From a virus (lineage: Duplodnaviria > Heunggongvirae > Uroviricota > Caudoviricetes), in the IMG/VR virus record IMGVR_UViG_3300045538_000409: a DNA stretch of 64,000 bases; one strand, given 5' to 3'. This document shows positions 20,033 to 47,390 of this stretch, one piece after another. Each line of letters begins with the position of its first letter. Within the stretch, counting starts at the first letter, position 1. A program made the translations under genes and the position numbers. The notes below the pieces were generated by a model, which saw only the letters and a list, made by a program, of their open reading frames with translations, made no database searches and was not told the DNA's origin.

Positions 20033-20403
20033 GGGGCTGACATTGGAAATTGATTATTAAACGATTCTAATTGTAAGGAAGTAGTGTTAAATGGAAACAC
20101 TTTAATAACCTATTAATACTTTTAAATGACAACGAATTTAACGTTGAACAAAACTTCCTTGAAACTTCAATAGTTGAAGTATATAAAGGAGAGGTAGCAT
20201 TAGCCTAATTCGAGTAATGTATTTGTGGTAAAACCACACAACACACCAATACTAAGGTGTTAAAATAGTAAATATGGATTACTACACACCATATAAACAA
20301 CGTAGTAGATTTTTTGGAAAGTTTTTTATAAAAACTATGACCTAAACTTCTAGAAATCATTTAAAACTTTAATAAGATTTGAGTTCGAATCTCAACAGCT
20401 CCA
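20033..20403 (+). ncRNA. ssrA: tmRNA (ssrA), one-piece, CCA not encoded
   Basis: 5' end GGGGCUGACAUUGG and 3' end GAUUUGAG-UUCGAAU-CUCAA-CAGCUCC-A. The acceptor pair GGGGCUG/CAGCUCC is identical to E. coli ssrA, and the T-arm is canonical. A promoter (TTGACA 19970 plus TATATATTTG 19991) lies upstream. A candidate tag ORF starts at ~20127 and ends ...GEVALA-UAA at 20207-20209. Confidence 0.75.
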
Positions 20404-20435
20404 CGAATATTACTTTTTATCATTTTATGTAAAAA

Positions 20436-23319: not shown

Positions 23320-23781
23320 ATGAAAGCAATTGAATTAATAAAAAAAGAATTAGGTGATGCTAAACTACCACCAAACGCTAATACAATATTTACTATAATT
23401 GAAAATATTGGTAAGATAAGGTTTAACATGGAAAAGTTACTAGTTAAACTTAGTTATGAAAACATTGGTAATATAATATTAGGTGATATTAATTTAAATG
23501 ATTATGTGAGAATAAATCACGAACTTAGCAAGAAATTAACAAGGGAATATGATTCACTTAGAAGTGAAATGAATAAAGTTGAAGTGAATTATGATGAATA
23601 TGAGGTTTTTTACGATGTCATTGATAATAATTTTTACCCGATAACTGAAGAAGAGATTTCTGACATGATAGATTCAATAGTAAGTGTATTTTCTGATATA
23701 ATAGAGGGTGGTGGTGATAAGGTTTTAAGGGATGCAAACCAAAGTACAATTATTAATGAGTTCAACAGATACAAACGATGA
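23320..23781 (+). CDS. hypothetical protein
   Basis: 153-aa ORF. Confidence 0.45.
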   Translation: MKAIELIKKELGDAKLPPNANTIFTIIENIGKIRFNMEKLLVKLSYENIGNIILGDINLNDYVRINHELSKKLTREYDSLRSEMNKVEVNYDEYEVFYDVIDNNFYPITEEEISDMIDSIVSVFSDIIEGGGDKVLRDANQSTIINEFNRYKR

Positions 23782-24308
23782 AAGAAATAATTAAAAAAAT
23801 AATAAGAGAAGGTCTAGAAGATAAGATTACAAAGATTTCTATATTTGATTTTGATGGTACACTTATGGCGACCCCAGAACCAGAAACTGGTATGAAGATA
23901 TATAAGGAAAAGACTGGTAAGGATTGGCCATTCCAAGGTTGGTGGGGTAGAAATGAGTCATTAGACATGGATGTATTTGATATAAAACCTATTCCATCAG
24001 TGATTTCCGATTATAACAAAGAAAGAGTTAAACCAAATACTCGTGTAATTATGATGACTGGTAGAATACCAAAAAATGCTGAATTTGTTGAAAAAATATT
24101 AAATAAGTACAACATTACTTTTGATGAATATATTTATAAGAAAGCATCCGACACTCTTTTATTTAAAATAAGTAAATTGGAAGAAATGTTAAGATGTTAC
24201 TCAAATTTAAAAGAAATTTCAATGTGGGAAGATAGAATTGAACACGTTAAAGCTTTTACAGAATGGGGCTTAAATAAAGATATTAAAATGGTGGTAAACC
24301 AAGTATGA
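23778..24308 (+). CDS. HAD-superfamily phosphatase with CTS-like N-terminus (MKEIIKKIIREGL)
   Basis: HAD motif I at ISIFDFDGTLM. N-terminus shares the MKxLIKKLLRE motif. Confidence 0.6.
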   Translation: MKEIIKKIIREGLEDKITKISIFDFDGTLMATPEPETGMKIYKEKTGKDWPFQGWWGRNESLDMDVFDIKPIPSVISDYNKERVKPNTRVIMMTGRIPKNAEFVEKILNKYNITFDEYIYKKASDTLLFKISKLEEMLRCYSNLKEISMWEDRIEHVKAFTEWGLNKDIKMVVNQV

Positions 24309-26220: not shown

Positions 26221-27018
26221 ATGAAAAATTTAATAAAAAGATTATTAAGAGAAGGATTGGAAGAAGTTAAATTATTTGAAACTCTTTTAGGTGAAGTTAC
26301 AAGCAAATTAGACTTCTCATCATTTAAGATGAACGACACACTTAACCCTGAGGTATGGGTTGATGAAAATACTATTGACCCAGAGATACAAAAAAATCTT
26401 TTAAAAATTGCTAAGGATTATTACAGTGAATTAAAATTAGATATTCCTATATTAGATATTACACTTACAGGTTCATTAGCCAATTATAATTGGTCAAAGT
26501 ATTCTGATATTGATTTACATATTATATTTGATGCAAATGAATTAGGTGAGGATAAGGATATGATTAAGGATTTATTGGATATTAAGACTAGAGCATGGAA
26601 CCTTAAACATGATATTAAGGTTAAAGGATTTGATGTGGAATTATATCTTCAACCAGAAGACCAACCACATCACTCAACTGGTGTTTATTCATTATTAAAT
26701 GATGAGTGGGTAACAGAACCAGAAAGAGTTGATGTGAATTTAGATAAAGAAACAATCACAAAAAAATATAATTCAATAATTAAATCTATTGAAGAAATTC
26801 AAAAAGATATGGATGAAGATAAGTTTGACTACGTTGTTAAACAACTAGATAAATTAAAAGAAAGAATTAAGAAGATGAGACAAAGTGGTTTGGATAGTGG
26901 TGGTGAATTTTCTAGTGAAAATATAGTATTTAAACTTCTTAGAAGAAATGATATAATGAAAAAGATTGACGATATGTTAGTGAAAGCATACGATAAATCA
27001 GTTAGCTTAGACCAATAA
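26221..27018 (+). CDS. nucleotidyltransferase-fold protein (Pol-beta superfamily) with CTS-like N-terminus
   Basis: LTGSLANYNWSKYSDIDLHIIFD matches the GS-x(9-13)-DxD minimal nucleotidyltransferase motif. N-terminus MKNLIKRLLREGL. Confidence 0.55.
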   Translation: MKNLIKRLLREGLEEVKLFETLLGEVTSKLDFSSFKMNDTLNPEVWVDENTIDPEIQKNLLKIAKDYYSELKLDIPILDITLTGSLANYNWSKYSDIDLHIIFDANELGEDKDMIKDLLDIKTRAWNLKHDIKVKGFDVELYLQPEDQPHHSTGVYSLLNDEWVTEPERVDVNLDKETITKKYNSIIKSIEEIQKDMDEDKFDYVVKQLDKLKERIKKMRQSGLDSGGEFSSENIVFKLLRRNDIMKKIDDMLVKAYDKSVSLDQ

Positions 27019-28337
27019 TGAAAGGATTAATTAAAACGCTTTTAAGGGAATATTTTCTAAATGAAAATAACGAATCAATTAATTATGAAATAGAACATTT
27101 GGGCAGCCATAATGGACAACATGATTATGAATTAGGTATGTATATTAATGGTGATATAGTTGGTTTAGCTCAATATACACTATATAATAATGAATTAACC
27201 ATTTCAGATATATTCGTTAGACCTGAAATGCGAAGAAGGGGTTATGGTTCTAGAATTATAGCATTTTTAAAAAAAGAATATCCAGAATACCAATATCAAC
27301 CTTCAATGAAAACTGATTTAGGTTCTAAATTCATACATAAAGACGTAAATCCGTATCAAGATTTAAACGAAGACACTTTTAATGTCTTAGAGTCTGAATT
27401 ACAAGAAGAAGTTACTTCTTCATTTACAGCCTATCATGGTTCACCAACTAAGATAGAAAGTTTTGTTGATGAATTTGTTGGTGGAAAAGACGCTACAGAC
27501 CAAAATGGACCTGGTATATATTTTACAACTAAGGTTGAAGAAACATATGGCTACGCTGAACGGGGTTATGTTTATCATGTTGAAATCGCTAATAGTAAAT
27601 TCTTAGATAGTATAGAACGTTCAGAAGGTTATTTAAGAAAATATAGAGGTGACGTTAAGAAACTAATTATGATGGCACCCGACTGGGAGATGGATGCTCA
27701 AAACTGGGCTGTAAACCCAAAAGAAGGACTTAATATGATGGTGGATAATTTCGTACAATACAATTCAAATGAGAAAGACGTATTCCTACAAGTTTGGATT
27801 GATGTATATAGGGGTATTGAAGTGCAGTTTGTAAGAAACATGGTCAAATTAGGATATGGTGGGTTGCTTATTAATGGTGGTTTTAATAGTGATAATGGTG
27901 GTGACCATATAGTAGTATATAACCCAGGGCTAATAACAATTAGTAAAGTAGAGTTTTTTGGTGATAAATCAATGAACGAACAAATAATATTACCTATAAT
28001 GAAAAACATGGAAAAAGCGCCAAATATGGGGAGTAAATTCGGTCAAGACGTAGAACCAAGTGGCACATATGTGTCTCATGATGATAGGAAAAATAAAACG
28101 CCAATAGATAATTATAAGTTAGGAAAAGTAACATTCAATAACCCACTTATAATAGATATAACTGATGATACAATCATTACTTATAAAAACAAATTAAGTC
28201 AACAATTTAAAGCTAAAGGTAAAAACCTTACTAATAAATTAATGGAAAAAGGTTATGATGGGTTAATTACTAGATGGCCCGATGGTAATTATAATGAACT
28301 GATATTATTCCCAAATAGTAAATATTACTTAAGTTAA
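27018..28337 (+). CDS. GNAT N-acetyltransferase domain fused to PARP/diphtheria-toxin-like (H-Y-E class) ADP-ribosyltransferase-like domain; CTS-like N-terminus
   Basis: GNAT motif A at VRPEMRRRGYGSRIIAFL. Downstream, FTAYHGSPTKIESF...GPGIYFTT parallels the PARP1 NAD-binding signature WHGSRTTNFAGIL...GKGIYFAD. N-terminus MKGLIKTLLRE. Confidence 0.55.
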   Translation: MKGLIKTLLREYFLNENNESINYEIEHLGSHNGQHDYELGMYINGDIVGLAQYTLYNNELTISDIFVRPEMRRRGYGSRIIAFLKKEYPEYQYQPSMKTDLGSKFIHKDVNPYQDLNEDTFNVLESELQEEVTSSFTAYHGSPTKIESFVDEFVGGKDATDQNGPGIYFTTKVEETYGYAERGYVYHVEIANSKFLDSIERSEGYLRKYRGDVKKLIMMAPDWEMDAQNWAVNPKEGLNMMVDNFVQYNSNEKDVFLQVWIDVYRGIEVQFVRNMVKLGYGGLLINGGFNSDNGGDHIVVYNPGLITISKVEFFGDKSMNEQIILPIMKNMEKAPNMGSKFGQDVEPSGTYVSHDDRKNKTPIDNYKLGKVTFNNPLIIDITDDTIITYKNKLSQQFKAKGKNLTNKLMEKGYDGLITRWPDGNYNELILFPNSKYYLS

Positions 28338-28390: not shown

Positions 28391-29557
28391 ATGAAACAAA
28401 TAATTAAAAAAATGGTTAAACAAAAGTTACTTAAAGAAGAGAGGATAAAGTTAAATATACCTATTCCTGATGACATAATACAAATTAAAGATATATTCGT
28501 CAATAACGGATATAAGTTATATATTGTGGGTGGTTCTGTACGTGACTCATTACTTAACAAACCTATTAAGGATTACGATTTAGCTACTGACGCAACACCA
28601 GACCAAGTTGAAGATATAATGAATAAATCTGGTTTTAAAACACTACCAACTGGTAAAGCATTTGGGGTTATAAATGTGTTTACAGATACTAATGAATACG
28701 AAGTGGCCACGCTTAGGTCAGATGGGGAATATACAGATTCAAGGAGACCTGACTCAGTAACATTCAGCGATATAAACTCAGATGCAGCCAGAAGAGACCT
28801 GACATGTAACGCTTTATATTATGATATAGATACCAAGGAAGTCATTGACTTAGTTGGTGGTATAAATGACCTTAGAAAAGGTATAATACGAACTGTAGGT
28901 AAACCAGAAGATAGATTTAAAGAGGATAAGTTAAGAATTCTAAGAAGTATTCGTTTTGCGGGTAGATTTGGTTCAGAATTGGACCCCAACATTGATAAAG
29001 TATTAAGTAATGACAGTAGTCTTAAAGGTATATCACCTGAAAGGATTAGAGATGAGTTCTTAAAGACGATTAAAAGTGCTAAGAGCATACAACAAGTATT
29101 TTTATTAATTGATAAATATAAATTATGGAATGAAATTTTTCCAGGTATTGATATCAATAAGAAGTTTGTTGAATCCAAAGACCCAATTATTGTTATCAGT
29201 ACCCTTATATTAGGTAACGAACCATCGAACTTAAGTAAGATTTTAAATAAATTAACATATTCAATAAGTGAAAATAAAGCTATTACTTTTTTAATTTCAT
29301 TTAGTACATTTAACGATATAAACAATGTGTACAAGATGAAGAAACTATTTAACGCTTCAAATGTTACTAATGAACAATTAAGAGAATTTAATAATATTAA
29401 TAAAATCTTACCAAGTAATGTCGTTGACACATTTATTAATTTCCAACTTAGCGTTACTGGCGACCAAGTTCAAAGTGAATTAGGAATTAAACCAGGACCA
29501 GAAATGGGTAAAACTATTGAAAAAATGGAAATTGATAACTTTAATAAACTTTTATAA
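28391..29557 (+). CDS. cca: tRNA nucleotidyltransferase (CCA-adding enzyme), with N-terminal CTS-like extension
   Basis: Head-domain motifs LYIVGGSVRD, DYDLATDA, RRD(L)TCNALYYD and ATLRSDGEYTDSRRPD. N-terminus MKQIIKKMVKQKLLKE precedes the catalytic core. Confidence 0.8.
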   Translation: MKQIIKKMVKQKLLKEERIKLNIPIPDDIIQIKDIFVNNGYKLYIVGGSVRDSLLNKPIKDYDLATDATPDQVEDIMNKSGFKTLPTGKAFGVINVFTDTNEYEVATLRSDGEYTDSRRPDSVTFSDINSDAARRDLTCNALYYDIDTKEVIDLVGGINDLRKGIIRTVGKPEDRFKEDKLRILRSIRFAGRFGSELDPNIDKVLSNDSSLKGISPERIRDEFLKTIKSAKSIQQVFLLIDKYKLWNEIFPGIDINKKFVESKDPIIVISTLILGNEPSNLSKILNKLTYSISENKAITFLISFSTFNDINNVYKMKKLFNASNVTNEQLREFNNINKILPSNVVDTFINFQLSVTGDQVQSELGIKPGPEMGKTIEKMEIDNFNKLL

Positions 29558-30894: not shown

Positions 30895-31842
30895 ATGAAG
30901 AGTAATATAAGAAAAATCTTAAGGGAAAATGTTAATACTAATGTATTAGGTATAACGATTACAAGACCAAATCAAGAATTGATTGTAATGGTAGGAATTC
31001 CTGGTAGTGGAAAATCTACAAAAGCTAAAGAATTGGTTGGTAATGGTCAAATTTTTTCAACTGATGATAGAATTGAATCACAAGGTGATTATTTAGAGTT
31101 TTTTAACAAAATGATTAATTCTAAGGATTTCACACCATTAAGTAATATGCACAACTTGAATTTCACAATGGCAAAAAAAGCCATGAAGACAGGTACAACT
31201 CCAGTAATTATTGATAACACTAATTTATCACCATCTGAATCTAAGAAATATGTTGAAGAAGCCTTATTATTAGGATATGCTGATGATAATATTAAATTTA
31301 TTGAAATTGGTACTGGTGGTTTATCGGCTGAAGAATTGGCAAATAGAAACACTCATGGTGTTCCGCTGGACAAAATTCAATCAATGATTCAAAAATATAA
31401 TTCACATAAACCAATGACTCTTAATAAAGTTTTAAATTCAAAATCAATTGATAATAAAAAAACTAACTTAATTGCTAGTTTAGTATTAGATGATACATCG
31501 CACGATAAATTAATTAAACTAGTAAAGGATTACATCCCTAAAGGTTGGAAAGTTTTTGCACATCATATGACTATTAATTTTGGGAATGGGTTACCTGAAA
31601 ATCTTAAGAGTGATTTAGGTAAAGTTAAATCTATTACTGCAACTGAGATTGGCGTTTCTGATATGGCTATAGCGGTAAGGGTTGAAGGATATCATTCGGA
31701 TAACAAAATTCCTCATATTACTATAGCGGTTAATGTGGCAGAAGGTGGTCGCCCTGTAATGTCTAATAATATTACTAATTGGAGCAAATTAGAAAATAAA
31801 ATTAATCTATCTGGAGTCATTTCTGAAGAAAAATTGAATTAA
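30895..31842 (+). CDS. polynucleotide 5'-kinase (T4 Pnk-like) fused to 2H-family cyclic phosphodiesterase; CTS-like N-terminus
   Basis: P-loop IVMVGIPGSGKST. Blocks VIIDNTNLSPSE and HGVPLDKIQSMIQKY are collinear with T4 Pnk (GCPGSGKST, VIISDTNLNPERR, VPIDVLRSMYKSM). The C-terminus has two H-x-T motifs (HHMTI, HITIA), a 2H phosphoesterase signature. N-terminus MKSNIRKILRE. Confidence 0.75.
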   Translation: MKSNIRKILRENVNTNVLGITITRPNQELIVMVGIPGSGKSTKAKELVGNGQIFSTDDRIESQGDYLEFFNKMINSKDFTPLSNMHNLNFTMAKKAMKTGTTPVIIDNTNLSPSESKKYVEEALLLGYADDNIKFIEIGTGGLSAEELANRNTHGVPLDKIQSMIQKYNSHKPMTLNKVLNSKSIDNKKTNLIASLVLDDTSHDKLIKLVKDYIPKGWKVFAHHMTINFGNGLPENLKSDLGKVKSITATEIGVSDMAIAVRVEGYHSDNKIPHITIAVNVAEGGRPVMSNNITNWSKLENKINLSGVISEEKLN

Positions 31843-34207: not shown

Positions 34208-35008
34208 ATGAAAAAAGTAATTTATTTAGCAATGGCAATCTTTGGGTTATCATTGACATCATGCGAAACAGTATCTCCAGGACACAAGGGTGTGGAAATT
34301 TCTTGGGGTGGTGAGACAAATTTACAAACAACTTATAATGAAGGTATGGCAACTGGTCTACACTGGATTTGGGATGAAATGGTAGAGTACGATGTTAGAC
34401 AAAAAACGCTAGTTGAAAAGTTTGAGTTTAACGACAACAACAACATGACAACTAATGTGGAAATATCGTTAGATTATAACTTAAATCCTGATAAGGTAAC
34501 TTTGTTACATACTCAGATTAGTGATATTGAGACAAAAATCCTCAAGACACTTAAGTCAGCAGGTAAGGAAGTTGTTCCACAATATTCGGCAGTTGAATTG
34601 AATATTACTAAGAGGCAAGAAGCGGAAGATAAACTTAACGCAATCCTTGCTAGGGAATTACCAGAATTCTATGTTCAATTAGCGAGAGTTCAAATGACTG
34701 ATGTTGACATCCCACCAGCAGTAGCTAAATTAGCTGAAGAAACAGCAGTTCAACTTGGTAGAAATGAATTAGCAACTAAGAAAGAAGCTGAACAAAAGTC
34801 ATTAGCTAAGGCTAAGGTAGCAACAGCACAAGGTAATTTTGACGCTGGTATTCTAGATGCTAAGACTAAGGAGTTATTGTCTAAACCAGAATTACTTAAG
34901 TTGAAAGAATTAGAGGTTGATATGGAATACGCTAAAAAAGGTGTTTCAAAATATGGAACTAACAATGTCTTTGGTGGTAATGGTGCAACTGTCATTAAAG
35001 GTTTATAA
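34208..35008 (+). CDS. SPFH/band-7 (prohibitin/HflKC-like) domain lipoprotein
   Basis: Lipobox LSLTSC, then VSPGHKGVEISWGG...VEYDVRQKT, typical of the SPFH domain start. Confidence 0.6.
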   Translation: MKKVIYLAMAIFGLSLTSCETVSPGHKGVEISWGGETNLQTTYNEGMATGLHWIWDEMVEYDVRQKTLVEKFEFNDNNNMTTNVEISLDYNLNPDKVTLLHTQISDIETKILKTLKSAGKEVVPQYSAVELNITKRQEAEDKLNAILARELPEFYVQLARVQMTDVDIPPAVAKLAEETAVQLGRNELATKKEAEQKSLAKAKVATAQGNFDAGILDAKTKELLSKPELLKLKELEVDMEYAKKGVSKYGTNNVFGGNGATVIKGL

Positions 35009-35868
35009 TGAAAATTATTAGATATCCAGATGGTTCTTCTTACGTAAAGTTAGAAGAACCAATATCTAAAGAAATAATATTTAGATTAAATACTTACGAA
35101 GATTTGTGGCATTTAAACCAAATTGTTGATGTTTATAATTATAACAATATAGTACCTACCATAACTATACCTAATCTTATAGATGCTCAAGCTGATAGAA
35201 GGTTTAATGATAATGAAAGTAGTGGCTTGAAATTAGTATGTAAATTTTTAAACAATTTAAATGCTAATTTTAAAATATTTCATCCACATAATCCTGAAGC
35301 GGTTGAAGCTTTAATGGATAACGTTAAAATTATTGAGAATCATTCATTTATTAAAGAAGTATTATCTGAAATATATTGTGATAATAATAGTATACTTAGA
35401 GACCTTGGGTTATTTTACCATACTAAATCAGAACTTTACGATAATTTAATTTTATTTTCAAGTGATTCTGGTGGATTCAAACCTCTTATGAAACTTTGTG
35501 ATAAAATTAATTGGAAAGGTGAAACTTTTTCAGCTAGTAAATCTCGTAAATATGAAAATGGTGAAACTAAATTAATACAACAAGTTAATCGTGAAGATTT
35601 TGGTGGTAAAGACATTCTTATTATCGATGACATTTGTGTATATGGAAAAACTTTTAAAGGTTTATATAAATTACTTAAAGAACGTAATTGTGGTAAATTA
35701 TATTTAGCTGTTAGCCATTTGACTATAGAACATCACCCACAAGATAGTGTATTTGAATATTTCGATAAGGTTTTTTGTACGAATAGTAAGTATGACGAAT
35801 ATACTGCTGAAAATGAACTTAGAGAAATGTTAATACCGCAAAATTTAGAAATTATAAAATTATTTTAA
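35008..35868 (+). CDS. PRPP-synthetase-like / type I phosphoribosyltransferase-domain protein
   Basis: PRPP-binding loop DILIIDDICVYGKTF and an N-terminal Prs-like region. Start overlaps the upstream stop (ATGA). Confidence 0.5.
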   Translation: MKIIRYPDGSSYVKLEEPISKEIIFRLNTYEDLWHLNQIVDVYNYNNIVPTITIPNLIDAQADRRFNDNESSGLKLVCKFLNNLNANFKIFHPHNPEAVEALMDNVKIIENHSFIKEVLSEIYCDNNSILRDLGLFYHTKSELYDNLILFSSDSGGFKPLMKLCDKINWKGETFSASKSRKYENGETKLIQQVNREDFGGKDILIIDDICVYGKTFKGLYKLLKERNCGKLYLAVSHLTIEHHPQDSVFEYFDKVFCTNSKYDEYTAENELREMLIPQNLEIIKLF

Positions 35869-35870
35869 TT

Positions 35871-38579
35871 ATGCAAAAATTAAATCAAACGTTTAAAATT
35901 AACCCTTTGTATGAAGCAGATGGGTATAAAGTAGCTCATCATAAAATGTTAGCTCCTGGAACTACTAAATTATATGGTACTTGGATACCTAGAAGCTTAA
36001 AGTATATGCCTAGCGGTATTGATAAGATTATGTCAGCAGGACAACAATTAGTTGTTAGACATTTACATAGTACTTTTCAAGAAAATTTCTTTGATAAAGA
36101 TTCTAATGTTGCTATACAGTTTGCAAATGATATGTCAGCTTACTTAGGCATGGATTATGATGGAACACATTTTTTAGATTTGTATAAGTTAGGTTACTTA
36201 CCAATTAGAGTTAAATCTTTACCAGAAGGTATTTTCACACAACCTAATATTCCACACATGACTTTTGTTAATACTGTTGATGGTTATGCTTGGTTAACTT
36301 TATTTTTAGAGACTTATATTTCTAAATTAGCTTGGCAAATGCCTACTGTAGCTACTATAGGTCATAAGTTTAAAGAAAATGCTAAAGCATGGGTAAATTA
36401 TACTGATAAAGAAAATTTATGGTTAGCTGATTTTATGTGTCATGATTTTCATAGTAGAGGTGGAAATCCATTTACATCAATAGCTTGTGGTTTAGGGTTT
36501 TCTTTATCAAATAAAGGTAGTGATACACTTAATATTATCCCCGCTAGTAGATATTATTACGATGAAGCTGAAGATAGTATGCCTATTTTTTCAGTTAATG
36601 CTAGTGAACATTCAGTTTCTACAACTAAAATTTTTACAGTAGGTGAGCAACAAATGATAGCAGATTGGTTAAAGTTATTTCCTACTGGTATTTTAAGTGT
36701 TGTTAGCGATACTTTTTCTCTTTGGGATTGTATTGAATACTTTAAAGAGCTTAAAGATGAAATTATGGGTAGAGATGGTAAGCTAGTGTGTAGACCAGAT
36801 TGTCTAGATGATAAATCTCAAATATTAACACCTAAAGGATGGAAATATTTTAAAGATTTAACAGAAAATGATTTAGTGGCACAAGTAAAAAAAGATGGTA
36901 TTTATGAATTTGTAAAACCTTTAAAAATAATTAACGAACCTTATGAAGGTGATATGTATGAAATAAGAGATTTTCATGGAAAAATAGATTTAGTAGTTAC
37001 TCCAAATCATAGATTGGTTTCTTATAAAAATTCAGATAATTCTATCTCTATAAAAGAAGCTTCTGATTACAAACAAAATTATTGGGAATATAAAAAATTA
37101 AGAAGTCCTAAATCTCAAAGTAAAGGTAGAGAGTTAACAGCCTATGAAAGATTTTTAATTGCCTTACAGGCTGATGGTTGTATTAAATATGTAAATAAAG
37201 ATTTAAGTACAAGAATAGAATTTAACTTTAAAAAAGAAAGAAAACACGATAGATTACTAGAAATACTTAAAAATACAGATTTAGAATATAACGTTTATTT
37301 TACTAAATCAAGACAAGGTCAATCTACATTTAGTGTGTTAATACCTTATAATAGAATGGTATCTAAAACATTTGATTGGGTAGATACTTCTAATTTAGAT
37401 AGTTTGTGGGCGGAAGAATTTATAGAAGAACTAAAATATTGGGATTCTTCTATTAGAAATGATGGTAGATTTAAGTATGATACTACAATTAAAGAAAATA
37501 TTGATGTTGTAGAACTTGTAGCAATTGCTGCGGGAAAAGGTGTTTATATTTCTGAGTCAGAAGATAATAGAAAAAAACATTTTTCTAATGTATATACTGC
37601 TCATATTTTAGATAATCCTTATGTTGGTGGACAGTCTATTACTAAAAACAAAATACATTATAAAGGAACTATACATTGTGTAAAAGTACCAACAGGTATG
37701 ATTTTAGTAAAAAGAAATCAAGGTGTTTGTGTTACTGGCAATAGTGGAGACCCTGTAGATATTATTTGTGGAGTTTCAACTAAATATCGAGATTTATCAG
37801 CATACCTTCCTGAAGGAGAAGTTTTACCTGAATATTTCGAAGAAGTTTTATTAGAAGAAGTTAGGGAAGATACCCCGCATGGAAAACGTGGTGTTAGAGA
37901 ATATGAAAATGTCTATACCGTAAGAGGTAAACTGTATAAGGCTAAAATACACAACATATCTTGGAATAGACATGATAAACAATACTATTTCATCGATATG
38001 TGGGAAAAAGCAGAAATTACAATCGAAGAATTAGAATGGAAACCTTCTGATAAAGGTGTAATAGAACTTCTTTGGGATATATTTGGCGGTACTGTAAATG
38101 AAGAAGGTTATAAAGTATTAGACCCACACATTGGGGCTATTTATGGTGACAGTATTAATCTTGAAAGACAAATTCAAATCTATGAAAGACTTGAAGCTAA
38201 AGGATTTGCTGCTAGTAATATTGTTTTAGGTGTAGGTAGCTATACTATGGTTATGCTTACGAGAGATTCAGCTGGGTATGCAGCTAAAGGTAGTTGGTTT
38301 GAAGTTAAAGAGGAAACAGGTAATTTGTTATTAACCGACCCACCACAACCCGAATACAAGGTAACATCATATAACATCTACAAAGACCCAGTAACTGATG
38401 GTGGTAGTAAAAAATCACTTAAGGGTTTGATGCAAGTTAAATTAGTAGATAATGAATATGTGGTAAATCAAGAATGCACTTGGGAACAAGAAGAAGATTC
38501 TGAATTAAAAACCATCTATGAAAATGGTGTGTTTAAAAATCAAACTACTTTAAGTGAAATTAGAAGCAGAGTTAGTTAA
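35871..38579 (+). CDS. nadV: nicotinamide phosphoribosyltransferase (NAMPT/NadV) interrupted by a 314-aa LAGLIDADG intein
   Basis: N-extein NPLYEADGYKVAHHKMLAPGTTKLY matches NAMPT [24 protein letters not shown]. C-extein GAIYGDSINL...VLGVGSYTMVMLTRD matches VIQGDGVDIN...AFGSGGGLLQKLTRD. The extein junction RPD|SGDP is the conserved active-site RPDSG. Confidence 0.85.
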   Translation: MQKLNQTFKINPLYEADGYKVAHHKMLAPGTTKLYGTWIPRSLKYMPSGIDKIMSAGQQLVVRHLHSTFQENFFDKDSNVAIQFANDMSAYLGMDYDGTHFLDLYKLGYLPIRVKSLPEGIFTQPNIPHMTFVNTVDGYAWLTLFLETYISKLAWQMPTVATIGHKFKENAKAWVNYTDKENLWLADFMCHDFHSRGGNPFTSIACGLGFSLSNKGSDTLNIIPASRYYYDEAEDSMPIFSVNASEHSVSTTKIFTVGEQQMIADWLKLFPTGILSVVSDTFSLWDCIEYFKELKDEIMGRDGKLVCRPDCLDDKSQILTPKGWKYFKDLTENDLVAQVKKDGIYEFVKPLKIINEPYEGDMYEIRDFHGKIDLVVTPNHRLVSYKNSDNSISIKEASDYKQNYWEYKKLRSPKSQSKGRELTAYERFLIALQADGCIKYVNKDLSTRIEFNFKKERKHDRLLEILKNTDLEYNVYFTKSRQGQSTFSVLIPYNRMVSKTFDWVDTSNLDSLWAEEFIEELKYWDSSIRNDGRFKYDTTIKENIDVVELVAIAAGKGVYISESEDNRKKHFSNVYTAHILDNPYVGGQSITKNKIHYKGTIHCVKVPTGMILVKRNQGVCVTGNSGDPVDIICGVSTKYRDLSAYLPEGEVLPEYFEEVLLEEVREDTPHGKRGVREYENVYTVRGKLYKAKIHNISWNRHDKQYYFIDMWEKAEITIEELEWKPSDKGVIELLWDIFGGTVNEEGYKVLDPHIGAIYGDSINLERQIQIYERLEAKGFAASNIVLGVGSYTMVMLTRDSAGYAAKGSWFEVKEETGNLLLTDPPQPEYKVTSYNIYKDPVTDGGSKKSLKGLMQVKLVDNEYVVNQECTWEQEEDSELKTIYENGVFKNQTTLSEIRSRVS
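36801..37742 (+). mobile_element. intein with LAGLIDADG homing-endonuclease domain inserted in nadV
   Basis: Begins with Cys1 (CLDDKSQ), has block B TPNH, LAGLIDADG-like LIALQADGC, and ends ...VCVTGN followed by Ser+1. Removing it restores the contiguous NAMPT motif RPD-SGDP. Confidence 0.75.
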
Positions 38580-38979: not shown

Positions 38980-40095
38980 ATGGAACTAAACATCGTTAAA
39001 CATATAAAAAAATATGGTCTAGAAAAGGCCATTATTGATTTTGATTTAATATGCAAGGAGAATGGCAATCTTATATTACTTAAATACAATCAAATATCCT
39101 CTCCAATGGACAAAATAGAGGTTCAAGAATCTAGAGGTTTAATATTAGAAAAAGGTACATATAAGGTTATTTCAATGGCCTTTATGAAATTTTTCAATCA
39201 TGGTGAAACTAACGCAGCAAATATTGACTGGGACTCAGCGCATGTTTTAGATAAATTAGATGGGTCGCTACTTTCTTTATATCATTATAATGACACTTGG
39301 AATGTTTGTACAACAGGAACCATTAATGGTGAAGGTGAAGTTAATAATAAATATGGAACTACATTTAGAGATTTGTTTTGGGGTACAATAAATAGTAAAT
39401 ATAATTTCAATATTAATAAATTAAATAGTGACTATATATATGCTTTTGAATTAACGACACCTTATAATATTGTTGTTAAACCACATAGTGAATCATCCGC
39501 AACACTTCTTACAATTAGAAATAGAGAAAATCTTAAAGAAATACCTTATAATGAGTTAATTCCAGTTGCCAATGAATTAGGTGTACCTTTAGTTAAAAGG
39601 TATGATTTTAACATTAAAAATGTTGATGTTTTAATTAAGACTTTTGAAAATATGCCATGGTCAGAGGAAGGTTATATTGTTTTAGATGGTAACTTTAGTA
39701 GAATTAAGATAAAAAATCCAGCATATGTTGCGGTTCATTTATTAAAAAATAGAACATCAGAACATTCAATAATGGAAATTGTTAAGTCTAATGAAATTGA
39801 AGAGTTTGCATCAACATTTATAGAGAGAAGAGAAGAGATTTATAATCTTCATAAAAACTATAATGAATTAATTAATAAATTAGAAAATATATGGAAATTG
39901 CTTGAACCATTAAAACCAAAAGACATATCTCCAGAAGAAAAAAAGAGGTATGCTATGGAAGTCTTTAGAGTATGTGAAGAAAATGATATTAAGATGTTTA
40001 CAGGACTTTATTTTGGTTTAAACGATGGTAAAATTGAATCTATTGGTGAATATATGATGAATTATGATAATAAAAGATTATATCAAATTTTATGA
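38980..40095 (+). CDS. ATP-dependent RNA ligase (Rnl family)
   Basis: Nucleotidyltransferase motif I KLDGS, motif IV EGYIVLDG and motif V RIKIKNPAY. Confidence 0.75.
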   Translation: MELNIVKHIKKYGLEKAIIDFDLICKENGNLILLKYNQISSPMDKIEVQESRGLILEKGTYKVISMAFMKFFNHGETNAANIDWDSAHVLDKLDGSLLSLYHYNDTWNVCTTGTINGEGEVNNKYGTTFRDLFWGTINSKYNFNINKLNSDYIYAFELTTPYNIVVKPHSESSATLLTIRNRENLKEIPYNELIPVANELGVPLVKRYDFNIKNVDVLIKTFENMPWSEEGYIVLDGNFSRIKIKNPAYVAVHLLKNRTSEHSIMEIVKSNEIEEFASTFIERREEIYNLHKNYNELINKLENIWKLLEPLKPKDISPEEKKRYAMEVFRVCEENDIKMFTGLYFGLNDGKIESIGEYMMNYDNKRLYQIL

Positions 40096-40916
40096 ACCAA
40101 ATATATAAAATTTTCAAACAATATAAATATAAATTATTATTAATTTATTTATTTATGTTAGTAACTGAGTTAGCTATAGTTACACAACCATATTTACTTG
40201 GTAAAAGTATTGATGGTTTAATATCTGGAGATACATCGTGGACCTTATTACTCTTTATCTCATTTGTAACATCTCAATTTTTTATGTATAAAAGAATGGT
40301 ATATGATACTAAGATATATAAAAAAATATATAATGATATTGTTATTGATTTCTTGAAAAAATCAAAAGATGATTATTCAATAAAAATAGCAAGAACTGAT
40401 ATGGCTAATGATATTGTTGGTGTGCTAGAAGGATATGTTCATTATTATATATCAATTATAATTACTATTGTAGGTTCAATAGGTTTTATATACTTAGAAA
40501 ATTGGAGAGTAGGTTTATTAGTTACTACATCATTTATATTCATAGTCCTAAGTGTTTTATTGTTCTATAAGAAAATAAGACAAAGTATTAACATTAGAAA
40601 TAATAATTATGAAAATAAAGTTAAGGCTATACAATCAGGTTACGAAAAATCAGTATCCTTCTTACATCGACAACGCAAAATAGAAATTATTGAATCAAAC
40701 CTACAAGGTAAAAACTGGTTCTCCGTTGGTATAATAAAATCTATATTTTTAATATTATCTATTATAACACTAATTTTTACTAGTGAAAATGTTACAGCAG
40801 GTAGTGTAATTACAATATATACATATATTAATAATTTCTTAATATCACTAATGTCCATACCAGTAGCATTTGAAATGTACTCAAGATTAAGTGATATAAT
40901 TAAAAGACTTTGTTAG
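40092..40916 (+). CDS. polytopic membrane protein
   Basis: 274-aa ORF with about 6 TM helices. Confidence 0.45.
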   Translation: MNQIYKIFKQYKYKLLLIYLFMLVTELAIVTQPYLLGKSIDGLISGDTSWTLLLFISFVTSQFFMYKRMVYDTKIYKKIYNDIVIDFLKKSKDDYSIKIARTDMANDIVGVLEGYVHYYISIIITIVGSIGFIYLENWRVGLLVTTSFIFIVLSVLLFYKKIRQSINIRNNNYENKVKAIQSGYEKSVSFLHRQRKIEIIESNLQGKNWFSVGIIKSIFLILSIITLIFTSENVTAGSVITIYTYINNFLISLMSIPVAFEMYSRLSDIIKRLC

Positions 40917-41652
40917 TGTTAAACATCTCTTTACCTAATAAACCTTCTCTGTACATTCTGCGTTTAAGATTTTTAATCCAATTATTTCTTTCACTGTACG
41001 GTAGTTCATTGTAAATAACGTATAATGTTGGGGACATATGGATTAATTCGTCAAATGATAATAAATCCCACAAGTCCTCATTTTTCCGTTTTAACTGTAT
41101 AATGTTATGTATTTGTGCTTGTAATTCTAAATGATGTGTATTTATATGTTTAATTGGTTTAGACATATTGAAAAATTTTTCAATATGTCTATTATGAAAT
41201 GAATCATCTAACCAATGTGCTAATTCATGATGAATACTACCTTTAATTTTTTCCTCAGTGAATTCCTGCATAAAGCTTTTACCTAGAGAAACTGGTAAGT
41301 TTTCTTTTGCTTGTTTTAAATTTCCATTATAATCAAAGGCGTAGTTAAAAGCATTAAAATTAATTGATATTGATATTAATTGTTCAGACGGTCTATAAAA
41401 ATTATTACCATAATTTATTTTTATTTTACAAGGGTTAATTTTATTTGCCTTTAAAGTCAATTCATCAGTAAATACATCGGTGGTTGATATATACTGTTTA
41501 AACATATCTTTTCTAACAAACCCAGTGCTATTAATTTCATTAATATTGTTTTTGAAATATGCGTCATAAATATAATCTACGTCATGATTAATATTCATAA
41601 CCTTTTCTGTTAAAAGTGATTCCCTAACTAATTTTTTAATTAATGATTTCAT
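40900..41652 (-). CDS. zincin-like metallopeptidase-motif protein (HExxH) with CTS-like N-terminus (minus strand)
   Basis: Minus-strand ORF MKSLIKKLVRESL...SIHHELAHWLDD, with an HExxH motif. Confidence 0.5.
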   Translation of the reverse strand: MKSLIKKLVRESLLTEKVMNINHDVDYIYDAYFKNNINEINSTGFVRKDMFKQYISTTDVFTDELTLKANKINPCKIKINYGNNFYRPSEQLISISINFNAFNYAFDYNGNLKQAKENLPVSLGKSFMQEFTEEKIKGSIHHELAHWLDDSFHNRHIEKFFNMSKPIKHINTHHLELQAQIHNIIQLKRKNEDLWDLLSFDELIHMSPTLYVIYNELPYSERNNWIKNLKRRMYREGLLGKEMFNTNKVF

Positions 41653-43981: not shown

Positions 43982-45157
43982 ATGAAACAGATAACACATG
44001 AATATTTAGTAGAAAATAATCTTATATTATTTGAAGTTATAGTTGGTAGTCAAGCACACGGGACTAGTTTACCTACTAGTGACGAAGACCGAAAATTCGT
44101 ATATATTTTACCAGAAGAATTTATTTTGGGTAATAAATATGTTGAACAAATTGATATCAACAAGGACTATACTGGCTGGGAGATAAGAAGATTCTTAGAG
44201 TTGTTAGAGTCTAATAATCCTACCGTATTTGAAATTTTGTATAGTCCAGAGGATTGTATAATTACAAAACATCCATTATTTGATATATTAATAAATAATA
44301 GAGATAAGTTTATCACTAAGATTTGTAAAAACTCATTTGGCGGATATGCACGCCAACAGATTACTAAGGCGAAGGCGCTTAATAAAAAACAGAACTGGGA
44401 AAAAGAAAAAATAACTCGTAAAGATGTCTTAGATTTTTGTTACGTAATCGAAGGTAATAAGACTACCCCATGGAGATTATGGAATGAAGCTAATCACTAC
44501 GATGAAAAATTTATTGGTGTGGTAAACACACCGAACGCTAGGGATATTTATGCGGTTTATTTTGATGTTGACGCTAACAATTGCTTCAGCGAGAAAATGC
44601 CAGAAGAGCTAAGAGAGGCAGCTAAAAAATGGAGAAAAGAAAGTGGTGCATCAATGGGGTTTGGCTATAAAGGGCTTGTAAAGAGTGGTGAGGGTAATAA
44701 TATTACTGAATCAAACCAATTAAGACTATCTAGTATTCCTAAAGGTGAAAAACCTATTGCAGTTATTTCTTATAATAAGGATGGTTACACTCAGCATTGT
44801 AAGGATTATAGAGAATACCAAGAATGGCTTGAAAAACGTAATGAAACTAGATATGTTGAAACTAAAACACATGGTCAACAAATAGACGGTAAAAATATGT
44901 TACACTGTGTTAGACTTATTAATATGGCAACAGAAATAGCTGAAGGTAAAGGTGTTCAAGTCCGCAGACCAGATAGAGAATACTTATTATCTATCAGAAG
45001 GGGTGAAGTACCCTTAGAAGAACTTATTGATTTAGCTAATGAAAAAATTAACAAGTTAGATGAGTTATTTGATAAATCAAACCTACCTGATAAAGTTGAA
45101 GATGGTTTAGTACATAAATTGTTAGTTGATATTAGAAAAAACTTCTATAATCGATAA
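43982..45157 (+). CDS. putative nucleotidyltransferase (Pol-beta-like fold)
   Basis: N-terminal VGSQAHGTSLPTSDEDRKFVYI matches the GS...DxD motif. The 391-aa specific family is not resolved. Confidence 0.5.
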   Translation: MKQITHEYLVENNLILFEVIVGSQAHGTSLPTSDEDRKFVYILPEEFILGNKYVEQIDINKDYTGWEIRRFLELLESNNPTVFEILYSPEDCIITKHPLFDILINNRDKFITKICKNSFGGYARQQITKAKALNKKQNWEKEKITRKDVLDFCYVIEGNKTTPWRLWNEANHYDEKFIGVVNTPNARDIYAVYFDVDANNCFSEKMPEELREAAKKWRKESGASMGFGYKGLVKSGEGNNITESNQLRLSSIPKGEKPIAVISYNKDGYTQHCKDYREYQEWLEKRNETRYVETKTHGQQIDGKNMLHCVRLINMATEIAEGKGVQVRRPDREYLLSIRRGEVPLEELIDLANEKINKLDELFDKSNLPDKVEDGLVHKLLVDIRKNFYNR

Positions 45158-47009: not shown

Positions 47010-47390
47010 ATGTACAATTTATTTTTGGATGACGAAAGATTCCCAACAAGAGCTCAATCACTCATTGAGTTTGATAAAGAATTATACACTGACGATTCTA
47101 ATTGGGTGATAGTTAGAGACTACTCAGAGTTCATAAATTATATTAGCGATAATGGGCTACCAGAAATGGTTTCTTTTGACCACGATTTAGCTGATATTAA
47201 ATACGTTATGGGCAAATCATCTTTTTCTTTTAAGGAACACACAGGATATGATTGCGCAAAGTGGTTAGTAGAATATTGTTCAACCAATAATTTAAAGTTA
47301 CCCAAATACCAAGTACATTCAGCCAATCCAATTGGAAAGGTTAATATACAAAGTTATTTAGAAAATGCTAAAAAACATATCGGATTATGA
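47010..47390 (+). CDS. hypothetical protein
   Basis: 126-aa ORF between tRNA genes. Confidence 0.45.
   Translation: MYNLFLDDERFPTRAQSLIEFDKELYTDDSNWVIVRDYSEFINYISDNGLPEMVSFDHDLADIKYVMGKSSFSFKEHTGYDCAKWLVEYCSTNNLKLPKYQVHSANPIGKVNIQSYLENAKKHIGL

Follow-up and report, generated by a model that had tools for sequence, protein, structure and literature searches.

ART-PolyVal, a family of ADP-ribosyltransferase (ART) domains, was defined from the polyvalent proteins of phages and conjugative elements and was grouped with the Tox-ART-HYD2 clade, related to the poly(ADP-ribose) polymerases (PARPs) and diphtheria toxin (Iyer et al., 2017, PMC5512222). Polyvalent proteins carry one to twelve ART copies each, a GNAT acetyltransferase domain is the usual neighbor of ART-PolyVal, and the family signature was given as H-Y-D, with a histidine in strand 1, a tyrosine in strand 2 and an aspartate in "strand 5" (Iyer et al., 2017, PMC5512222). 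ART domains are the commonest predicted macromolecule-modifying enzymes of this class of phage proteins. Tpt1/KptA, another member of the ART superfamily, depends on nicotinamide adenine dinucleotide (NAD+) and acts in the Trl1/Tpt1 RNA-repair pathway, where a 2'-phosphate remains after healing of the 2H type and is passed to NAD+ by Tpt1/KptA. The protein described here is encoded by an open reading frame (ORF 27018; 27018..28337, + strand, 439 amino acids) of a Caudoviricetes virus (IMG/VR record IMGVR_UViG_3300045538_000409), in a stretch of 64,000 nucleotides that is called the window below. It is a small modular enzyme made up, in four parts, of a portable leader of 11 residues, a minimal GNAT domain, an ART domain of the ART-PolyVal type and a miniature ART-like domain (mini-ART).

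The coordinates are exactly those of an original prediction, made from the same DNA before this analysis, which had seen in this ORF a GNAT domain fused to a PARP/diphtheria-toxin-like NAD site. That guess was right, because the structural matches of the ART domain include PARP15, PARP4, diphtheria toxin and PARP1, and residues H140 and Y168 bear it out. Regarding its function, the protein could, by analogy with known enzyme sets, be part of a phage RNA (tRNA) repair island in which it has a Tpt1/KptA-like, NAD+-dependent role; this tentative reading is preferred because the genes linked to it make up the Trl1 + Tpt1 enzyme set. The ART-PolyVal family and its fusion to GNAT are already known, and a GNAT-ART near NAD+ genes has largely been described before. 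What is new is the second ART-like domain, the state of the active site (His for Glu and Gly for Asp) and the strong, quantified link of this ART subfamily to tRNA-repair genes (kinase-2H, Rnl1 and CCA-adding).

Domain architecture and active site

The main ART domain covers residues ~133–313 (27414..27956, +) and includes a helical insert of ~80 residues. The YHGS (residues 139–142) and GPGIYF (residues 164–169) motifs lie where the original prediction had placed them, with H140 (27435-27437) and Y168 (27519-27521) 28 residues apart, and the motif match is not by chance, since both residues are invariant in 148/148 aligned homologous domains. Y179 (27552-27554) corresponds to PARP1 Y907 by motif alignment, and its position is Tyr or Phe across the family (149 ART domains). 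The Pfam profile ART-PolyVal (PF18760) matches the query with an E of 6e-6 and 27.5 bits, below the 31.2-bit cutoff and over model positions 9-67 only; homologues of ~40% identity score 33.4–38.1 bits, above the cutoff, across model positions 4-134, and of the 90 relatives that are closest in the database, nearly all carry PF18760. The domain is of the ART-PolyVal type and has the ART fold, the strand-1 His and the strand-2 Tyr (H140, Y168). Its best structural match was a chain of the cyanophage A4 pre-ejectosome (10.8, with 155 residues aligned), and other matches were PARP15 (9.3), PARP4 (9.2), diphtheria toxin (8.6), PARP1 (8.3) and Tpt1 (6.5 and 4.9). Also among the fold matches were the inactive PARP-like domains of RCD1, SRO1, TASOR and PARP13, and the NAD+-degrading toxins RES and MbcT. 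A sequence search of PDB with the domain and its profiles gave no match to any chain.

Profile search and structure prediction, which had been proposed as a check, located the ART fold but not the catalytic glutamate that was expected with it. The assignment to the H-Y-E class consequently stood for the fold and for the NAD-site His and Tyr only; the canonical triad is absent from the main ART domain, and by strand order the Glu slot is occupied by H297 (27906-27908). The strands after the helical insert (280–285, 297–300 and 306–313) follow one another in one-to-one order with those of diphtheria toxin (RVVLSLP / VE148YINNW / LSVELEINF) and PARP1 (HSVKG / E988YIVY / VNLKYLLKLKF). By this topology, H297 would sit in the catalytic Glu slot, where the penultimate core strand begins, and position 281 would head the preceding strand, equivalent to the "Y-D-S" strand of mono-ART PARPs. 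Slot 297 (H-I-I-V-Y-N-P) holds His in 137 of 147 homologues, the remainder having Asn (5), Gln (2), Ile (2) or Tyr (1). Position 281 (G-Y-D-G) is Asp in 139/149 ART domains and, as the only broadly conserved Asp, is probably the Asp of the H-Y-D signature. The query lacks it: G281 (27858-27860) is shared with the 95% identical orthologue (Gly in 2/149 overall), and the next clade has Ser. H140, G141, G164, G166, Y168, Y179, H297, N302 and P303 are all retained.

The likeness to ART-PolyVal extends from the strand-1 His, the strand-2 Tyr and homologues that pass the Pfam cutoff to giant multidomain phage proteins, a GNAT neighbor and multiple ART copies. The query differs in being a stand-alone protein of 439 residues in which the family Asp is replaced by Gly, and its subfamily differs by the ~80-residue helical insert, by the conserved His in the Glu slot and by a link to kinase-2H, Rnl1 and CCA-adding genes of which none was described for ART-PolyVal in the literature examined. 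With the H-Y-E enzymes (PARPs and diphtheria toxin) the query shares the H-G-S and G-x-G-I-Y-F motifs, whereas it lacks the catalytic Glu and the PARP regulatory domains and is ~15% identical.

The C-terminal 120 residues (~320–439; 27975..28334, +), overlooked by the original prediction, are modeled as a second ART-like fold. No Pfam family matches this region. The model (predicted local distance difference test score 88.6) has the same order of secondary structures as the main ART domain but lacks most of the helical insert, and its best Foldseek match was AcrF11 (probability 0.98), a minimal ART anti-CRISPR of 137 residues that is the nearest solved analogue of the domain, at 11–12% identity. 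The fold scores are modest and two methods agree. Profile–profile comparison of the two ART domains was not significant globally; locally it gave a weak alignment (E 4e-4, probability 36%, C-terminal 38 columns) that pairs E427 with H297 and D414 with position 281, which is a hint only. The protein is divided into leader, GNAT, ART and mini-ART because the C-terminal model, Foldseek and the local profile alignment all give an ART-like fold. Residues of interest in the mini-ART (+ strand) are K329/N330, Q343-D-V-E346, Y351 (28068-28070), D414 (28257-28259) and E427 (28296-28298), the last three being invariant. Unlike AcrF11, the domain carries Lys-Asn at the place of the His or Arg that is found in strand 1 of ARTs, and it may bind substrate or ADP-ribose.

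The GNAT domain is minimal (residues ~20–115, just ~95 amino acids; 27075..27362, +). Pfam Acetyltransf_1 matches residues 8–92 with an E of 1.4e-8 and 35.4 bits against a cutoff of 20.7 bits, spanning model positions 7-92 of 116. Motif A, RRRGYGSRII, occupies residues 72–81 (27231-27260), as had been predicted, and contains the acetyl-CoA pyrophosphate-binding loop (R/Q-x-x-G-x-G/A) as R72-R-R-G75-Y-G77-S78. R72, R73, S78, Y93, S96, G102, F105 and K108 are invariant in 59/59 homologous domains, G75 being kept in 55/59 and G77 in 51/59, and the domain may acetylate a target.

Exact and 95% identical copies of the 439-residue protein were found in metagenome contigs only; the gene had no DNA match in 50,697 phage records, and the uncultured phage has no match among cultured ones at the DNA level. 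Its orthologue (P0001) is 95% identical and has the same synteny. The ratio of nonsynonymous to synonymous substitution rates (dN/dS) between the two is 0.17 overall, from 53 substitutions (small counts), and 0.05–0.21 per domain, with 0.21 in the main ART domain, which is under purifying selection, and the lowest value, 0.05, in the mini-ART.

A separate observation concerns the best structural match, 9k3a_B, a chain of 1071 residues that is labeled "tail protein" in the A4 pre-ejectosome. Anabaena phage A-4L gp27 (L004 5117-10270, -; 1717 residues) has LYHGT...GSGTYF...VGVDAL...TLVINP at residues ~1424–1600, which from these motifs appears to be an H-Y-D ART-like domain with the family Asp kept (V-D-A-L), and 9k3a_B was assigned to gp27 because only this protein is long enough and has the motifs. 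A Pfam scan of the A4 ejection proteins gave no ART family, and the paper on the pre-ejectosome structure does not mention ADP-ribosylation.

Linkage to RNA-repair genes

Among 221 database homologues sorted by module architecture, the GNAT, ART and mini-ART modules proved to be mobile: ART alone was found in 108, GNAT alone in 53, mini-ART-ART in 31, mini-ART alone in 19, ART-mini-ART in 4, GNAT-ART in 3, and ART-GNAT, ART-ART and GNAT-ART-mini-ART in one each, the last being the orthologue. In this set 14/221 relatives join the ART domain to a complete CCA-adding enzyme and 8/221 join it to a 2H domain, most of the latter with both HxTx motifs and four with the 2H domain directly after the ART; the ART is also fused to HAD_SAK_1 (P0133) and to NUDIX (P0125). 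The same RNA-repair partners recur in fusions with GNAT and mini-ART modules (HAD_SAK_1, for instance, is joined to ART or GNAT in P0133 and P0128), and some giant proteins combine ART, CCA-adding enzyme, 2H and HAD domains.

Gene neighborhoods show the same linkage. Six-frame ORFs of 56 IMG/VR viral loci with an ART of this family were searched with the window proteins, counting matches within 10 kb. Near the ART, 2H was found in 27 of the 56 loci, at least one tRNA in 27, a P-loop kinase in 20, Rnl1 in 19, a CCA-adding enzyme in 18 and NUDIX in 15, compared with 0–3 for unrelated window genes used as controls. Dereplication at 80% identity reduced the loci to 39 clusters. 2H was present in 18 of these, usually as part of a kinase-2H gene, and lay downstream of the ART in 17 of the 18, with a median distance of 1.2 kb. 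In 7/39 clusters the start of the kinase-2H gene is 22–143 bp past the ART gene, and in 11/39 Rnl1 follows 1.4–6 kb further on. Four further long contigs showed the order cREC-ART...kinase...HAD_SAK or CCA...ART-kinase/CPD-PolB-NUDIX-Rnl1-Rnl2 (CPD, cyclic phosphodiesterase), and two others had no such RNA-repair pattern. Among jumbo phages of ~350 kb, Serratia phage BF (L005 6992-7591) and Salmonella phage Munch (L007 5989-6678) encode solo ART homologues of ~200 residues, annotated as hypothetical, that lie within tRNA arrays directly after a tRNA gene.

The window itself, judged by its gene content, appears to be an unusually complete translation-rescue and RNA-repair island. The start ATG of ORF 27018 overlaps by one base the TAA of the upstream ORF (TAATG), so that it is translationally coupled to a Pol-beta-type nucleotidyltransferase (26221..27018, +), and 54 bp downstream lies a CCA-adding tRNA nucleotidyltransferase (28391..29557, +; Pfam PolyA_pol, E 1e-39). 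Further on, a P-loop kinase (GIPGSGKS) joined to a 2H phosphoesterase (HMTI at residue 224, HITI at residue 274; 30895..31842, +) is predicted to be a Trl1-like kinase-CPD end-healing enzyme, and an RNA ligase of the Rnl1 type (38980..40095, +; Pfam RNA_lig_T4_1, E 5e-14) and an RlaP nucleotidyltransferase (43982-45157) follow. A HAD_SAK_1 RNA-repair phosphatase is encoded upstream (23778..24308, +). A 126-residue ORF in the tRNA cluster (47010-47390, +) is a cREC homologue (E 2.5e-30), related to the Pfam cREC_REC gene that immediately precedes the ART in locus L008. KptA itself (PTS_2-RNA) gave no hit among ~40 scanned ORFs of the window, which is part of the genome only, and ORF 27018 has neither a profile match to Tpt1/KptA (PF01885) nor the R-H-R-R catalytic tetrad. 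What it shares with Tpt1/KptA is the ART superfamily, dependence on NAD+, which we infer for the query, and genomic partners like those of the Trl1 + Tpt1 pathway (kinase, 2H/CPD, RNA ligase, NUDIX).

A repair cycle can be proposed from this enzyme set. Host nucleases would cut tRNA, and the phage kinase-2H enzyme would heal the ends, leaving a 2'-phosphate behind; the Rnl1 ligase would then seal the break and the CCA-adding enzyme would restore 3' ends. Like Tpt1/KptA, the ART module might spend NAD+ on moving the 2'- or terminal phosphate to ADP-ribose, and the ADP-ribose by-product could be processed by 2H, cREC, HAD or NUDIX enzymes. Domains, folds, conserved residues, purifying selection, fusions and gene order are observed here; that NAD+ is used, that RNA is the substrate and each catalytic step of the cycle are inferred. 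In the described KptA-2H-Macro/NUDIX chemistry, the ADP-ribose product is likewise processed by 2H, Macro or NUDIX proteins, and the same contextual argument was used for a KptA-like role of a phage sirtuin clade (PMC9503650). No published KptA-like proposal was found for a polyvalent-type ART, the RNA-repair survey of Burroughs and Aravind (2016) lying outside the comparison. Extended to the whole subfamily, the proposal becomes more doubtful, though it is still a possible one: polyvalent-protein ARTs of this subfamily, often with a mini-ART, would be non-orthologous stand-ins for Tpt1/KptA in the tRNA repair of large phages, the ART-kinase/2H-Rnl1 operon would mirror the eukaryotic Trl1 + Tpt1 pathway, and the enzymes would share a portable leader that marks module boundaries. 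If RNA repair is indeed the function, a PARP/toxin-like ART clade has been recruited for the job of Tpt1, supplying the step that is missing where phages rely on 2H enzymes to heal RNA ends, and a second example is at hand of NAD+ being spent on tRNA repair against host anticodon nucleases; the protein would then be predicted to remove 2'-phosphate in vitro and to complement a tpt1 deletion.

Several points weigh against this proposal. After dereplication, 21/39 loci have no RNA-repair neighbor, many loci may share one broad phage lineage, so that the counts are not fully independent, and the ART homologue of jumbo phage XaC1 lies among virion genes, beside two NUDIX genes. Polyvalent proteins join unrelated activities, which makes fusion a weak guide to pathway (Iyer et al., 2017, PMC5512222). 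With the family Asp missing (G281), the ART domain of the query may be impaired, and the placement of H297 in the Glu slot was made by strand order and not by superposition. The RNA-repair role is put forward tentatively because across the subfamily it is argued from genomic context, because the ART fold is nearer to protein-modifying ARTs and because polyvalent proteins mix activities.

The N-terminal leader and rival explanations

The leader of ORF 27018, MKGLIKTLLRE (residues 1–11; 27018..27050, +), is one version of a motif common to seven window ORFs. The form MKxLIKxLLRE is found strictly in five and with one mismatch in seven, and the pattern M-K-x-[LI]-I-[KR]-x-[LI]-[LIV]-[KR]-E occurs at 23778, 24305, 26221, 27018, 28391 and 30895 (+) and at 41652 (-). 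Two of the seven are identical over the first 13 residues and near-identical in DNA. All leader ORFs encode RNA-repair-type enzymes or unannotated neighbors of these. The homologue set contains 49 copies of the leader, where shuffling predicts 0.7. They stand at N-termini or exactly at the junction of two modules, with median distances of 5 residues from the domain before and 7 to the domain after; in related loci it was found 24 times against 0.6 expected, mostly at the ART N-terminus or at the mini-ART/ART junction. The original prediction had taken this N-terminus for a capsid-targeting-like sequence. The T4-type pattern, an amphipathic N-terminus of ~10 residues ending in hydrophobic-x-Glu, is present, and the same leader also stands on the CCA-adding, kinase-2H, HAD and nucleotidyltransferase enzymes and between fused domains. 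The leader could signal cleavage or packaging, act as a docking helix or mark a boundary at which modules recombine easily, and for the RNA-repair toolkit as a whole it may be an assembly, cleavage or packaging signal.

These observations bear on the proposal that the protein is injected like T4 Alt. In its fuller form, which we consider unlikely, the ART would ADP-ribosylate and the GNAT would acetylate host proteins (RNA polymerase, translation factors, defense proteins) early in infection, perhaps after delivery from the capsid, with the leader as targeting or cleavage signal. ART-PolyVal was indeed defined from polyvalent proteins that are predicted to be injected and that have GNAT as a usual neighbor (PMC5512222). 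Both GNAT families are RimI-like, suggesting protein substrates, and in structure the ART matches an ejection protein of cyanophage A4 best, followed by PARPs and diphtheria toxin, which modify proteins. With its final hydrophobic-hydrophobic-x-Glu the leader resembles the T4 capsid-targeting sequence and the L/I-x-E cleavage rule, and an HExxH protein with the same leader is encoded at 41652-40900. The query is, like Alt, a phage-encoded ART, and its leader might serve packaging; however, Alt belongs to the R-S-E clade (Alt/VIP2) and the query is of the H-Y type, with a gene context that is not that of virion or baseplate. The argument for injection had started from a leader motif that four repair enzymes also carry, and ORF 27018 lies among nucleotide-metabolism and RNA-repair genes and not among virion genes. 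Moreover, no MuF or portal fusion was found among the 221 homologues, and the sole protease-like gene found in the window is ClpP/S49-like and not T4 gp21-like. The injected, Alt-like reading is consequently weakly supported, and RNA repair is favored over it because related phages typically have kinase-2H and Rnl1 directly after the ART gene, in a conserved ART-kinase/2H-Rnl1 order; more generally, RNA mending is likelier than modification of host proteins by an injected enzyme because the relatives adjoin tRNA-repair genes. Were the Alt-like reading true, the shared leader would define a new signal that directs an entire set of enzymes to the capsid.

Two further explanations set the RNA-repair role aside in other ways. 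It is improbable that the main ART of the query is a degenerate module that binds NAD+ or ADP-ribose or serves as a scaffold, leaving catalysis to the GNAT or the mini-ART. Such a state would fit the replacement of the family Asp in the query and its orthologue (Gly) and in the next clade (Ser), a PF18760 score below the cutoff, a catalytic slot without Glu, the inactive PARP-like domains (RCD1, SRO1, TASOR, PARP13) among the structural matches, and a mini-ART that keeps Y351, D414 and E427 invariant at the lowest dN/dS. On the other hand, the nine motif and core residues from H140 to P303 listed above are all kept, the ART domain is under purifying selection, and either D281 or H297 could be the catalytic residue of the family. 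PARPs without Glu (PARP10, PARP15) are still active mono-ARTs, which counts against degeneration as well. More improbable still is an enzyme that makes or consumes soluble NAD+ or ADP-ribose derivatives, as an NADase or by interfering with signals, and that manages the NAD+ pool together with a NARP1-like gene pair. A Prs-like gene (35008-35868, +; Pribosyltran, E 3e-9) followed by a Nampt-like gene of the NAPRTase family (35871-38579, +; Pfam E 1e-14, PHROG NAMPT E 1e-133) does lie downstream on the same strand, NUDIX is near ART homologues in 15/56 loci, and the NAD+-degrading toxins RES and MbcT are among the fold matches. The original prediction had correctly identified both genes and had linked NAD+ supply to its consumer, but it is loose to call them next to the ORF, because 6.7 kb and about a dozen ORFs separate them. 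Nor is their co-occurrence a conserved functional link, since 0/56 related loci have either a Prs-like gene or NAMPT within 10 kb of the ART. NARP1 (Adps + Namat) rebuilds NAD+ from ADP-ribose and nicotinamide and defeats NAD+-depleting defenses, and countering host NAD+ depletion in this manner would explain the presence of the pair without the ART; a local NAD+ recycling loop that includes the ART is speculation.

Further features of the window

The window has ~28% G+C, is coding nearly all on one strand and contains 11 tRNA genes (22429-53761) and a transfer-messenger RNA (tmRNA; 20033-20404, +) with the tag EVYKGEVALA. A DUF2828/DUF7788 protein (13262-14698), matched by PHROG as "RNA-binding protein", is possibly a candidate TROVE-like protein. 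The 631-residue leader-bearing neighbor at 24305 seemed similar to the middle region of P0010, and this was dropped at a BLASTP E of only 0.02.

The protease-like gene (18833-19570, +) matches a ClpP/S49-like "head maturation protease" (PHROG 94, E 4e-38) and lies among non-structural genes, beside the tmRNA; its product could be of the ClpP type rather than a prohead protease. The HExxH protein (40900-41652, -) has 250 residues with a conserved IKGSIHHELxHW, has no significant Pfam match and is, from this motif, possibly a zincin-like metallopeptidase candidate; in P0122, P0146 and P0220 the same domain is joined to an ART, GNAT or mini-ART module.

In the NAD+ gene pair, the Prs-family gene directly precedes the Nampt-family gene; the operons of Bas63 and SPbetaL1 have this order too, a likeness to NARP1 in layout. 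The pair differs from NARP1 in its Nampt-like gene, which encodes 902 residues and has an intein-like insert: the 500-position NAMPT profile is matched across residues 7–901, and the ~320-residue insert (~300–626) matches unrelated protein profiles (RNR, PhoH, ThyX), as is usually seen where an intein or a homing endonuclease has inserted.

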